A stretch of DNA of 64,000 bases, taken from the sequence record MN850621.1; one strand, given 5' to 3'. A program made the position numbers and the translations under genes. Source of the DNA: Escherichia phage dhabil. The notes beneath the pieces were generated by a model. The model saw nothing but the letters and a program-made list of their open reading frames with translations. It was not told the origin of the DNA and made no database searches. Below, piece after piece: positions 226 to 10,941 of the stretch; position 1 is the stretch's first letter, and every line of letters begins with the position of its first letter.

Positions 226-642
226 TTATGCGTAAATCGCCTTACCATAATGTTTGTACCAGGTAGGACGTTGTGCAATTTTTTCATCCAAACGGGCTTG
301 TGAAATAGCGATAGAAGCTTCGTGAGGAACATAATCACCACGGAATTCCTGAGGAATATCACTAATGTCCTGGACTGTAGTATCCTTGATATTAAAGCCA
401 CGTTTTAAACATTCAGCTATAAGCTCAATTTGACGCTTACGTAAAAATTCAAGCTTATCATAAAAGAATGTAACATGGCCTGTACCAAGGATAAAAGTAG
501 GGCTGATTTTAAAATCACGAACACGTTTACCGTTAGCAACATGCTTACGAACTGCACCGAAAACACGTGGTAATTCACGGTATTCAGCCATAAGGTGTTG
601 GTCGGCCAATTCAGATACTAAGGTAAGGTTGATACGAGTCAT
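226..642 (-). CDS. denV: endonuclease V, pyrimidine-dimer DNA glycosylase/AP lyase
   Basis: 138 aa, near-identical to T4 DenV as remembered ([26 protein letters not shown]...); SD AGGAG upstream. Confidence 0.95.
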
Positions 643-702: not shown

Positions 703-1191
703 TTATCTATAAGCGGCCCAAGTACCTGTTTTAAAGGTGGCGATAACACGCTTGGCACGATTCGGGGTTTGCTTGTACCAACGAGACTGCGCCAGGTTAA
801 CTGCGGCGTCATCCCAACGTTTTTGTTGGAGCATACGCAGAGAGTTGGTAAATCCCGCTACACCAGCTTCACCCATTTGGAAGACCATATTAATCAATGC
901 ACAACGACGAACTTCGTCCAGCACATCATAAACCGGTTTCAATTTAGGATTGCGCATTATAGCTCTACGAGCATTTTCCACTGAACGATTAAAGAGTTGT
1001 TCAGCTTCAGCCATAGTAATACGACCATTACAAACTCGACCCATAAGCTTATCAAGTTCAGCGCGAGCAACATCTTTAGATGGGTTCTTGGTAACTAACT
1101 GGCCTATACCAATAGTCCAATAACCTTCGGTGTCTTTATAAAGATTTAAATCAAGACCTTCGTCTTGACGTAACATATCAAAAATATCCAT
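703..1191 (-). CDS. e: lysozyme (endolysin), T4 gene e homolog
   Basis: 162 aa, aligns along full length with T4 lysozyme (…[17 protein letters not shown]…[59 protein letters not shown]). Confidence 0.95.
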
Positions 1192-4908: not shown

Positions 4909-4929
4909 AATATTTTCCTCAGAGTAAAC

Positions 4930-5169
4930 TTAAATTTCAGCAACGTAATCGTTATGCAATTCCCACATATCATCAGAATTATTCTTAATGATAGGAATTA
5001 TCTCATTAGAGATTTCTTCGGCATAAGGGTCGTTGATACAGTGAGCGTCTTCAAAACGAACACCATAATCAGACTTCTTATAGGCAAAGCCATAAATCTT
5101 TTTAAACTTGGCACGACTAATGCGTACCGGCTCATCAGACTTATCAGACAGTGGAGAGTAATACCACAT
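4930..5169 (-). CDS. hypothetical small protein
   Basis: 79 aa ORF with SD AGGAG 6 nt upstream of ATG. Confidence 0.45.
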   Translation of the reverse strand: MWYYSPLSDKSDEPVRISRAKFKKIYGFAYKKSDYGVRFEDAHCINDPYAEEISNEIIPIIKNNSDDMWELHNDYVAEI

Positions 5170-9479: not shown

Positions 9480-10103
9480 TTATTTACGAGTCTTTTCGAA
9501 CTGAGCTGCGTCACCGGCCAGTCGGCGTGCTTGACGAAGTTTGTTGTCAATTTCTTCGCGCATAGGCTGGGTGTACTTAAGGCCTTCAACCGTCAGATAG
9601 AGACGATAAAGGTCTGGTGTGTCCAGGTTGTTAATGTGTTGACCGTTACGAAGAACATTGAATTCACGAACAAGGTGTTTAGTTTCGGATTCTATTTCAG
9701 AAACCAAAGAAGCCAGTTGGTTATATTTTTTAACAATAGTGCTGGTGTCGAACTTGATTTTAGGTTTAGGAGCTTCTTTTACAGGCTCTGCTTTAGGTGC
9801 TGCCGCAGGTTTAGGTGGTGCAACTTTGGTTGGGGCTGCAGGTTTAGCAACAGGAGCTTTAGCTGGTTTAGCAGGTTTAGTAGCGCCACCGGCTACGATA
9901 TCTTTAAAAGCTTTGGAAGCTTTGTAATATTCTTTCTGGTTACTAGTATCAAAACCATACATATCATAAACGTTTTTAAAGAACTCGGTAGTGGTTTTAG
10001 TCCCGGAAATTTTATCATAAGCAGCTTGCCACATATCTTTAGTCATGCGCACGCTGGCTTCAGTCAGAACGCTTTCGTTCAAAAATTCATTGTAAGTTTT
10101 CAT
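9480..10103 (-). CDS. internal head protein (IP) with capsid-targeting sequence and Ala/Pro/Lys-rich linker
   Basis: N-terminus MKTYNEFLNESVLTEA matches the T4 IP capsid-targeting sequence and protease cleavage motif (LTE|A); late promoter upstream. Confidence 0.6.
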   Translation of the reverse strand: MKTYNEFLNESVLTEASVRMTKDMWQAAYDKISGTKTTTEFFKNVYDMYGFDTSNQKEYYKASKAFKDIVAGGATKPAKPAKAPVAKPAAPTKVAPPKPAAAPKAEPVKEAPKPKIKFDTSTIVKKYNQLASLVSEIESETKHLVREFNVLRNGQHINNLDTPDLYRLYLTVEGLKYTQPMREEIDNKLRQARRLAGDAAQFEKTRK

Positions 10104-10131: not shown

Positions 10132-10139
10132 TATTTATA
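10132..10139 (-). promoter_or_regulatory. late promoter TATAAATA (minus strand) for the IP gene
   Basis: Exact TATAAATA ~30 nt upstream of ATG at 10103. Confidence 0.5.
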
Positions 10140-10140
10140 C

Positions 10141-10168
10141 AAAAAAGGCCCAACCTTTCGGAAGGGCC
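10141..10168 (-). terminator. rho-independent terminator at the 3' end of the tRNA/stable-RNA transcription unit
   Basis: Hairpin ggcccaaccuuucggaagggcc followed by U6 on minus strand. Confidence 0.65.
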
Positions 10169-10338
10169 TTTAACCTAGGGTAACCTTGTCGGGGTTCCAC
10201 CTGCTAGGCAAGTGTTCGGTGCGCCGTTTCAGCTGTGAGATAAGGGACTTTAAGAGGAACTCATGTACGCCTTAAAGTCGGGTCTTATTCAGGGAACTTC
10301 AGTCCGACGACTTACCGGTAGCGACCCGGTTTCTTGTT
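10169..10338 (-). ncRNA. possible small stable RNA(s) downstream of the tRNAs
   Basis: 170 nt with no ORF, relatively GC-rich, between tRNA-Arg and the terminator; inferred by analogy to T4 species 1/2 RNAs. Confidence 0.25.
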
Positions 10339-10414
10339 TGGTCGAGACAGTAGGGATCGAACCTACGACCCAGGACTTAGAAGGTCCTTGCTCTTCCTTC
10401 TGAGCTATGCCTCG
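10339..10414 (-). tRNA. tRNA-Arg (anticodon UCU)
   Basis: Manually folded cloverleaf: acceptor cgaggca/tgtctcg, anticodon stem aggac/gtcct, loop cuUCUaa, T-arm gtagg-ttcgatc-cctac, encoded CCA. Confidence 0.8.
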
Positions 10415-10418
10415 TATT

Positions 10419-10493
10419 TGGCGGACATGCATGGATTCGAACCATGGACCAATTGATTAACAGTCAACTGCTCTACCACTGAGCTACACATCC
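10419..10493 (-). tRNA. tRNA-Asn (anticodon GUU)
   Basis: Cloverleaf: acceptor ggatgtg, D-arm gctc-agtggta-gagc, anticodon loop cuGUUaa, T-loop ttcgaat, encoded CCA. Confidence 0.75.
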
Positions 10494-10497
10494 AAAT

Positions 10498-10571
10498 TGG
10501 TGGCCCTGGGTGGAATCGAACCACCATCCAGCGATTATGAGTCGCTCGCTTGACCGTCCAGCTACAGGGCC
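10498..10571 (-). tRNA. tRNA with CAU anticodon (Met, or Ile if lysidine-modified as in T4)
   Basis: Cloverleaf: acceptor ggccctg, anticodon stem agcga/tcgct, loop cuCAUaa, T-arm ggtgg-ttcgatt-ccacc, encoded CCA. Confidence 0.8.
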
Positions 10572-10656
10572 TTAATTCTATTATGAAAGGCTCTTTGAGG
10601 GAAGAACCTTTGGTAATAGAGGGTATTAATGATAGAGTAATAATATCACATAATTC

Positions 10657-10941
10657 TTAAAGCATATTAATATAGTCAAGTTTAATAGAAGCAATCTTCA
10701 AAGGGTTTTTAAAGATGTCGTATTCGACCAATCCATTTTCAGTTGCGGTATAAAAAGTAAAGTTAACAGAATTATAGCGATGGCTGTTAACTTTGAGTTT
10801 AACATCGCTTGAACTACGGCCAATATTAACCTGTTGAACATCAAGCACGGCATCTTTGCCGTAATTTCGAATCAACAACTCGGCTGCAACCTGATCGGAT
10901 TTATAGCCATTCTCTGGATTAGTAACCTTAACGTATAACAT
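10657..10941 (-). CDS. hypothetical protein
   Basis: 94 aa ORF, SD GAGGG, start overlaps upstream stop (TAAATG). Confidence 0.5.
   Translation of the reverse strand: MLYVKVTNPENGYKSDQVAAELLIRNYGKDAVLDVQQVNIGRSSSDVKLKVNSHRYNSVNFTFYTATENGLVEYDIFKNPLKIASIKLDYINML

Follow-up and report, generated by a model that had tools for sequence, protein, structure and literature searches.

What has become of the tRNA and stable-RNA region of phage T4 in a relative that carries only three tRNA genes, and what is encoded in the non-coding sequence that follows them? The two stable T4 RNAs at issue, RNAC and RNAD, have been known since the 1970s and are detected as late RNAs. We addressed the question in Escherichia phage dhabil (sequence record MN850621.1), by analyzing a stretch of 64,000 nucleotides (nt) that we call the window and whose numbering is used throughout. 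Our results indicate that region 10141-10664 on the minus strand is very probably a reduced, Dhakavirus form of the tRNA and stable-RNA operon of T4. The locus is a known T4-like type of operon with a tRNA set that was already known, and it holds a previously unannotated copy of rnaD.

Escherichia phage dhaeg (MN850609; Tevenvirinae, Dhakavirus, JS98 group) matches the window at 100% identity, and IME08, JS10 and JS98 match it at 97-99% over the tRNA locus. Upstream of the locus lie 57B, the gene for an internal head protein and trna.2, and downstream e.8 and e.6, which makes the locus syntenic with the T4 tRNA region. Along the transcript the order is a tRNA with a CAU anticodon (10498..10571), tRNA-Asn (GUU, 10419..10493) and tRNA-Arg (UCU, reading AGA, 10339..10414), followed by rnaD, a conserved trailer and a terminator. 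ARAGORN, run on all 64 kb, found exactly these three tRNA genes, each on the minus strand, and the Rfam tRNA family RF00005, with a gathering score of 29 bits, matched them with 62.6, 72.6 and 63.8 bits, respectively. A preliminary description of the same DNA had placed the three genes at these very positions, with encoded CCA ends and 4-nt spacers; the CCA can be read in the sequence of all three and the spacers follow from the ARAGORN coordinates. Its statement that T4 encodes eight tRNAs and two stable RNAs at the equivalent locus is borne out by the T4 record X03016, where eight tRNAs are followed by species 2 RNA, species 1 RNA and a potential terminator. Sub-threshold Rfam rows for YrlA, Plastid-ycf2 and permuted tmRNA are merely the tRNAs themselves. 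Since a review table gives three tRNA genes each for JS98 and JS10, the three-tRNA set is an already documented state of JS98-type phages. If established T4 biology is a guide, the operon would be transcribed as a single precursor, which host RNase P and 3'-processing nucleases would cut into mature tRNAs and a stable RNA D of ~120 nt, and CCA addition would be unnecessary for the three tRNAs.

The deposited record annotates the three tRNAs and has no feature between tRNA-Arg and the next coding sequence (CDS), with no CDS in 10169-10338. That this stretch is free of open reading frames (ORFs), as first described, holds in substance, as only two frames of 46 and 47 amino acids (aa) touch it and both run into tRNA genes. 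The annotation of phage RB27 has rnaD and rnaC directly 3' of tRNA-Arg, and in a pairwise alignment with RB27 the sequence from the tRNA-Arg CCA to about 10217 was homologous to rnaD throughout, with near-identical ends and a diverged middle. End-to-end alignment with RB27 rnaD and T4 species 2 RNA gave an rnaD orthologue of 121 nt at 10217..10337 (minus strand), unannotated in the record. The same comparison with RB27 showed that rnaC (species 1 RNA, 139 nt) is cleanly deleted between rnaD and the trailer, and other contigs from IMG/VR likewise have the rnaC-less arrangement. The preliminary suggestion that the downstream stretch may encode stable RNAs was thus right in that an rnaD homologue is present, and too wide in the plural, as only this one was kept. 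By BLAST, rnaD-like sequence is found in 734 phage records, all of them T-even-type phages of Enterobacteriaceae, and rnaC in 744, of which 491 are at least 99% identical, so that rnaC is far more conserved than rnaD. That this lineage retained the more variable of the two and dispensed with the more conserved one implies that they are functionally separable. As a side observation, RB27 rnaC (L001 2556-2694) has a tRNA-like T arm and acceptor stem at its end, for which the tRNA-Sec model gave only a weak 16.6 bits.

To describe the structure of rnaD we aligned 18 unique sequences, comprising the window, T4, RB27, PhAPEC2 and 14 IMG/VR contigs. The RNAalifold consensus has a 5' tail of AAGAA, a P1 hairpin of 5 base pairs (bp), whose 7-nt loop (GUCGCUA) does not vary, and an AA linker. 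The remainder folds into a long, interrupted rod of P2 (7 bp and a bulged C), P3 and P4, with a variable hairpin at the apex. Over the 24 consensus pairs 97.2% of the alignment cells were paired, as compared to 32-51% when the 3' partners were slid, and six pairs (the P1 closing pair and pairs in P3 and P4) were changed on both sides, versus 0-2 in the slid controls. The P3 closing pair, for example, is U-A in 10 sequences and A-U in 7, and for one pair in P4 the counts are 7 A-U and 6 G-C. None of 500 shuffles reached the observed covariation score. The apex occurs as at least three unrelated sequences, represented by the dhaeg/JS98, T4/RB27 and L008/L013 types, each of which folds as a hairpin, and their differing combinations with the flanks point to modular exchange. 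The basal 60% of rnaD is invariant across genera. Covariation accordingly supports the predicted hairpin-plus-rod fold of rnaD, in which the base is invariant and the apex exchangeable.

A covariance model built from this alignment (R1) scored the window rnaD at 133.7 bits (E ~3e-35) and found exactly one rnaD per locus and no extra copy elsewhere in the window. On the RNA strand Rfam had no match to rnaD or the trailer in 10141-10338 even at E<=10, and neither RB27 rnaD nor RB27 rnaC matched an Rfam family at gathering level or at E<=10; a MicC row overlapping 10141-10338 on the opposite strand (E 5.9) was regarded as noise. We also considered an origin in, or mimicry of, the host, and found no blastn match to rnaD plus trailer in 5,426 Escherichia coli genomes and no exact match to the invariant rnaD core in 185,579 representative GTDB genomes. 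Two other identities for rnaD were rejected. A tRNA-like RNA with a CCA end is suggested by the terminal CACCA of the T4 copy; this CCA is not conserved, with CACCG in the window and CACAG or CACCU in other copies, and the reading was dropped. A small ORF (ATG to TGA, 12 codons) exists in T4-type copies, but the window and most other copies lack the ATG and have AACAAG, ATTAAG or GACAAG at this point.

In the window rnaD is part of the tRNA operon and precedes the trailer and terminator common to these loci, and it directly abuts the tRNA-Arg CCA here as well as in T4 and RB27. In Mosigvirus and Gaprivervirus relatives an ORF stands between tRNA-Arg and rnaD, and rnaD starts right after the stop codon, which shows that rnaD is not tied to tRNA-Arg. 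The tRNA-Arg of the window belongs to the RB27 lineage and is very different from that of T4 (L004 4539-4613); the two have little in common beyond the anticodon loop and the T loop. Contigs L011-L013 carry the T4-type tRNA-Arg beside the same rnaD, and the occurrence of both types next to the same rnaD implies that the tRNA-Arg gene has been exchanged between lineages.

Several relatives show further arrangements of rnaD. In the Gaprivervirus phages UPEC01 (L024 447-563) and MN01 (L027 447-570), and in the untyped IMG/VR contig L005 (4101-4224, minus strand), rnaD comes after a small ORF and runs directly into a string of U's, so that P2 might serve as the stem of a terminator as well. The UPEC01 copy, in which the GACUGA/GAAA internal loop is replaced by paired GGCCUG/CAGGC, was among the divergent copies recovered by the covariance model. 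In another IMG/VR contig (L030 1629-2288, minus strand) an ORF of 219 aa with T5orf172/MUG113 domains, of the mobile nuclease type, takes the place of rnaD after tRNA-Arg; all that is left are the final ~12 nt of rnaD and the trailer, and the reading frame of the ORF extends into the latter (...HLPCRWNPDKV*). An extra element of ~66 nt was seen between the T4-type tRNA-Arg and rnaD in L011 (~1039-1104, minus strand), L012 (~326-391, plus strand) and L013 (~249-314, plus strand). Its layout is rnaD-like, a 5' hairpin of 6 bp being joined through an AA linker to a short rod that ends in CGGCGCAAC, and the GACUGA motif is kept; it has a fold z of -3.2, is not detected by the covariance model and looks like a truncated rnaD paralogue. 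In distant genera there was a single tentative rnaD-like match, of 15.5 bits, in Enterobacter phage IME523 (Kanagawavirus; L031 359-464, plus strand). It lies in an unannotated gap between tRNA-His and tRNA-Met and keeps the motif order, with a P3 that is wholly different yet complementary (GAAU/AUUC). The gaps at 301-617 and 840-1000 of IME523 hold more unannotated, structured-looking sequence around its rnaC homologue.

Downstream of rnaD, an alignment of 14 trailers (A6) defined a conserved trailer of ~48 nt at 10169..10216 (minus strand), with the core AACACUUGCCUAGCAGGUGGAACCCCGACAAGGUU at 10182-10216. The core, AACACUUGCC(U)UAGCAGGUGGAACCCCGACAAGGUU, hardly varies among Tequatrovirus, Mosigvirus, Dhakavirus and Gaprivervirus, and the trailer exceeds both the adjoining terminator stem and the rnaD apex in conservation. 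The window contains it once, and it is linked to the terminator rather than to rnaC or rnaD; in L005 it is preceded by an ORF ~500 nt downstream of rnaD. The hairpins predicted in the trailer are invariant in the alignment, leaving no covariation signal, and a single-rod fold and a three-hairpin fold are nearly isoenergetic. The single-rod fold, with its apparent compensation between the CCUAGGU and GCAAGGC versions, was not taken as decisive. The trailer could be a small RNA derived from the 3' end, a site of processing or protein binding, or a signal at the DNA level.

The operon ends at an intrinsic terminator (10141..10168, minus strand), made up of a GC-rich hairpin at 10147-10168 and a run of six U's at 10141-10146. 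This hairpin and U run, described earlier from the letters, are present in the sequence and in the folds and align with the terminator annotated in T4 ('pot. terminator', 4929-4952 of X03016), to which they are homologous. The stem has 7-9 bp, a GAAA tetraloop and a 2x2 U/U internal loop, and contains one compensatory pair (CG in 11 sequences, GC in 3). A simple terminator scan did not list the hairpin at 10141-10168, probably because of the internal loop.

We then considered which tRNAs the operon encodes and what they are for. The CAU tRNA, aligned with the tRNA genes of the annotated E. coli K-12 genome, has the acceptor pairs G1-C72, G2-C71, C3-G70, C4-G69 and C5-G68 and an anticodon arm, GCGACUCAUAAUCGC (stem AGCGA/UCGCU), that is identical to that of E. 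coli ileX. E. coli TilS requires C4-G69 and C5-G68 (PMC1635315), and both are there. In E. coli ileX (tRNA-Ile2, CAU converted to lysidine-AU) acceptor pairs 1-5, the anticodon arm and A73 are the same as in the phage tRNA, whereas the D and T arms differ. The elongator tRNA metT has U4-A69, A5-U68 and another anticodon stem, and the initiator metZ a C1xA72 mismatch and a GGG/CCC anticodon stem, all of which are absent from the phage tRNA. Over the whole molecule it is identical to ileX at 57/76 positions and to metT at 53/77, its best E. coli match is a gene named tRNA-Ile by PGAP, and its T4 counterpart, which has the 5' acceptor strand GGCCCUG and the anticodon loop in common with it, is annotated tRNA-Ile. 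By these features the CAU tRNA is of the tRNA-Ile2 type and not a tRNA-Met, and host TilS would convert its anticodon to lysidine-AU and thereby let it read AUA. The P1 loop of rnaD (GUCGCU) is complementary to the anticodon stem of this tRNA (AGCGAC), which we treated as a coincidence because T4 tRNA-Ile has another stem.

Codon usage was compared with that of the host, a comparison that had been proposed for late genes; one ORF caller served for both the window (73 ORFs, 19,593 codons) and a 50-kb piece of E. coli K-12 (43 ORFs, 14,638 codons). AGA was the most enriched codon in the phage (7.6 vs. 1.8 per 1000 codons, 4.1-fold) and ATA the third (12.0 vs. 3.8, 3.1-fold), while ATG was not enriched (26.2 vs. 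27.0). The two asparagine codons were enriched only mildly, AAT by 1.4-fold (29.1 vs. 20.2) and AAC by 1.1-fold (25.3 vs. 22.6). These figures support that the tRNAs add decoding capacity for AGA and AUA, which are rare in E. coli and enriched 3-4 fold in the phage ORFs. They also support that tRNA-Asn adds capacity for abundant asparagine codons, with only a loose fit to codon supply.

Two other explanations of the tRNA set have to be weighed against this. That the CAU tRNA is an elongator tRNA-Met, as it is annotated in GenBank records, we consider highly improbable. ARAGORN and the deposited annotations agree on tRNA-Met, on the anticodon alone, but the pairs C4-G69 and C5-G68, the ileX-identical arm, the lack of the metT acceptor pairs and the enrichment of ATA and not ATG all point the other way, as does the annotation of the T4 counterpart. 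The label 'tRNA-Met' in phage records is most likely a misannotation, since the call is made from the anticodon alone, and the earlier idea that this tRNA may be tRNA-Ile as in T4 agrees with our comparison as far as a modification that would take place in the host can be predicted. The other explanation is that the tRNAs are mainly spare parts, which replace host tRNAs cut by host or colicin anticodon nucleases rather than supplementing codon supply. Spare-part tRNAs are a known theme in T4-like and T5-like phages, and tRNA-Asn is only weakly justified by codon enrichment. On the other hand, AGA and AUA fit codon supply well, and the phage tRNAs are like their host counterparts in the anticodon loop or arm: the tRNA-Asn anticodon loop CUGUUAA and discriminator G73 are those of E. 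coli asnT, the tRNA-Arg loop CUUCUAA is that of argU, and the CAU arm that of ileX. This identity means that there are no loop changes giving nuclease resistance, although simple replenishment of cleaved tRNAs would still fit, and we regard the spare-part explanation as unlikely. Decoding capacity thus remains our preferred account of the tRNAs, and a reduced T4-type operon that of the locus as a whole. Some points weigh against this account. Codon supply explains tRNA-Asn less well than the other two tRNAs, and both the lysidine modification and the isoleucine charging of the CAU tRNA are predicted from sequence. For rnaD, covariation is silent on P2 and on 4 of the 5 P1 pairs, because these are invariant in the 18-sequence set, and the ends at 10217 and 10337 were set by the T4 and RB27 annotation only. 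As there is no RNase P site 3' of rnaD once rnaC is gone, its 3' end may differ, and the RNA might stay joined to the trailer and terminator as a species of ~200 nt.

The role of rnaD is a separate matter. We found no functional assignment for RNAD in the literature, where reviews and recent omics papers give the function of RNAC and RNAD as unknown; the only functional hint that we found is a convergent single-nucleotide polymorphism in rnaD in three lines of a T4-like phage adapted to a semi-permissive host. Our working guess, put forward tentatively as one possibility, is that rnaD is a trans-acting protein-binding or decoy RNA. Its invariant basal module (P1 loop, P2 and internal loops) would then be the recognition surface and its exchangeable apex a stabilising or specificity extension. 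A more far-reaching and rather doubtful version would have rnaD as a modular, host-adaptive decoy acting in trans and, in addition, the trailer plus terminator (~75 nt) as a third small RNA of T-even phages. The base would bind a conserved host or phage protein, for instance as a decoy for a nuclease or a defence sensor, and the apex, swapped by recombination among at least three unrelated sequences, would tune specificity. Trailer and terminator would be an undescribed 3'-end-derived small RNA of T-even-type phages. Conversely, 10169-10338 could be a mere 3' trailer, or a decaying and functionless relic of the T4 stable-RNA genes. The loss of rnaC here and the replacement of most of rnaD by a T5orf172-type ORF in L030 would agree with decay, and the entire T4 tRNA region is dispensable in laboratory hosts. 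A relic is nevertheless improbable given that the basal 60% of rnaD is held invariant across genera, that its helices keep pairing through compensatory changes, that the trailer outdoes the neighbouring terminator stem in conservation, and that rnaD behaves as an autonomous module, placed after tRNA-Arg, after ORF stop codons or with its own U run. Equally slim is the chance that rnaD acts only in cis, as a processing or stability element for the tRNA-Arg precursor. Its position next to the tRNA-Arg CCA in the window, T4 and RB27 would suit such an element, but in the Mosigvirus and Gaprivervirus relatives an ORF separates the two, and T4 rnaD accumulates as a discrete stable RNA (~120 nt; reported for T4 only).

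At the other end of the operon, ~70 nt upstream of the first tRNA, lies a predicted T4-type middle promoter (10640..10664, minus strand), with a perfect MotA box TGCTTTA at 10658-10664, a 12-nt spacer and a -10 element TATTAT at 10640-10645. In an alignment with T4, RB27 and PhAPEC2 neither the MotA box nor the -10 element varies, and the two fall on the -35 and -10 of PM2 annotated in X03016, to which the predicted promoter is homologous. We defined a middle promoter as a MotA box TGCTTYA located 11-13 nt upstream of a sigma-70 -10 element TAnnnT, a definition that includes 10640-10664. The corresponding motif TGCTTYA-N11-13-TANNNT occurs 6 times in the window, where 1.8 are expected, and 0 of 100 shuffles reached 6. 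Between promoter and first tRNA, a leader hairpin, AAGGUUCUU-CCCUCA-AAGAGCCUU (10587..10610, minus strand), could be read from the sequence. It is kept in T4, RB27 and PhAPEC2, and the PhAPEC2 variant AAGGUGCU/AGUGCCUU preserves the pairing.

Just past the terminator U run, at 10132-10139 (minus strand), stands TATAAATA, 28 nt upstream of the ATG of ORF 9480-10103; we take this motif to be the T4 late-promoter consensus, and it is found 19 times in the window versus 8.2 expected. This ORF lies downstream of the operon, and its C-terminal part contains a low-complexity stretch rich in Ala, Pro and Lys, KPAKPAKAPVAKPAAPTKVAPPKPAA (9800-9890, minus strand).

Taken together, our analysis corrects the annotation of the locus by adding rnaD, a predicted middle promoter and the terminator, and by replacing 'tRNA-Met' with a tRNA-Ile2 that would read AUA. 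What is new here is a model of rnaD that is backed by covariation and in which an invariant base carries an exchangeable apex, the separability of rnaD and rnaC, and the ultra-conserved trailer. RNAD has been without a known function for ~50 years, and the wider value of the locus is comparative. The rnaD structure and the trailer offer concrete targets for studies of function, and our alignment could become the seed of a family in Rfam, which has an entry for neither RNA.

Compared with the tRNA region of T4 (X03016), which is driven by PM2 and whose tRNA-Arg belongs to subcluster II, the dhabil locus has in common the flanking genes, the MotA-box promoter, the leader, rnaD, the trailer and the terminator, and in both phages rnaD begins 1-2 nt past the tRNA-Arg CCA. 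It differs by having three tRNAs instead of eight, no segB-type insertion and no rnaC, and by an rnaD apical domain that is unrelated in sequence and a tRNA-Arg from another lineage. RB27 (Tequatrovirus) has Met(CAU), Asn and Arg genes that are close to those of the window, with rnaD directly after them; unlike the window it carries 10 tRNAs and has retained rnaC. Also close are the Dhakavirus phages JS98, JS10 and IME08, which have the same three tRNAs (Arg, Asn and 'Met') and in which rnaD is unannotated too. Some relatives carry insertions of ~0.5-1.4 kb with extra small ORFs inside the tRNA locus, and in CLB_P2, JS10, C6, UP19 and IME281 a 601-nt query was matched in 2-4 pieces over 1.1-2.0 kb. 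These split matches suggest that the tRNA/rnaD locus is an insertion hotspot for small ORFs, in line with segB in T4.

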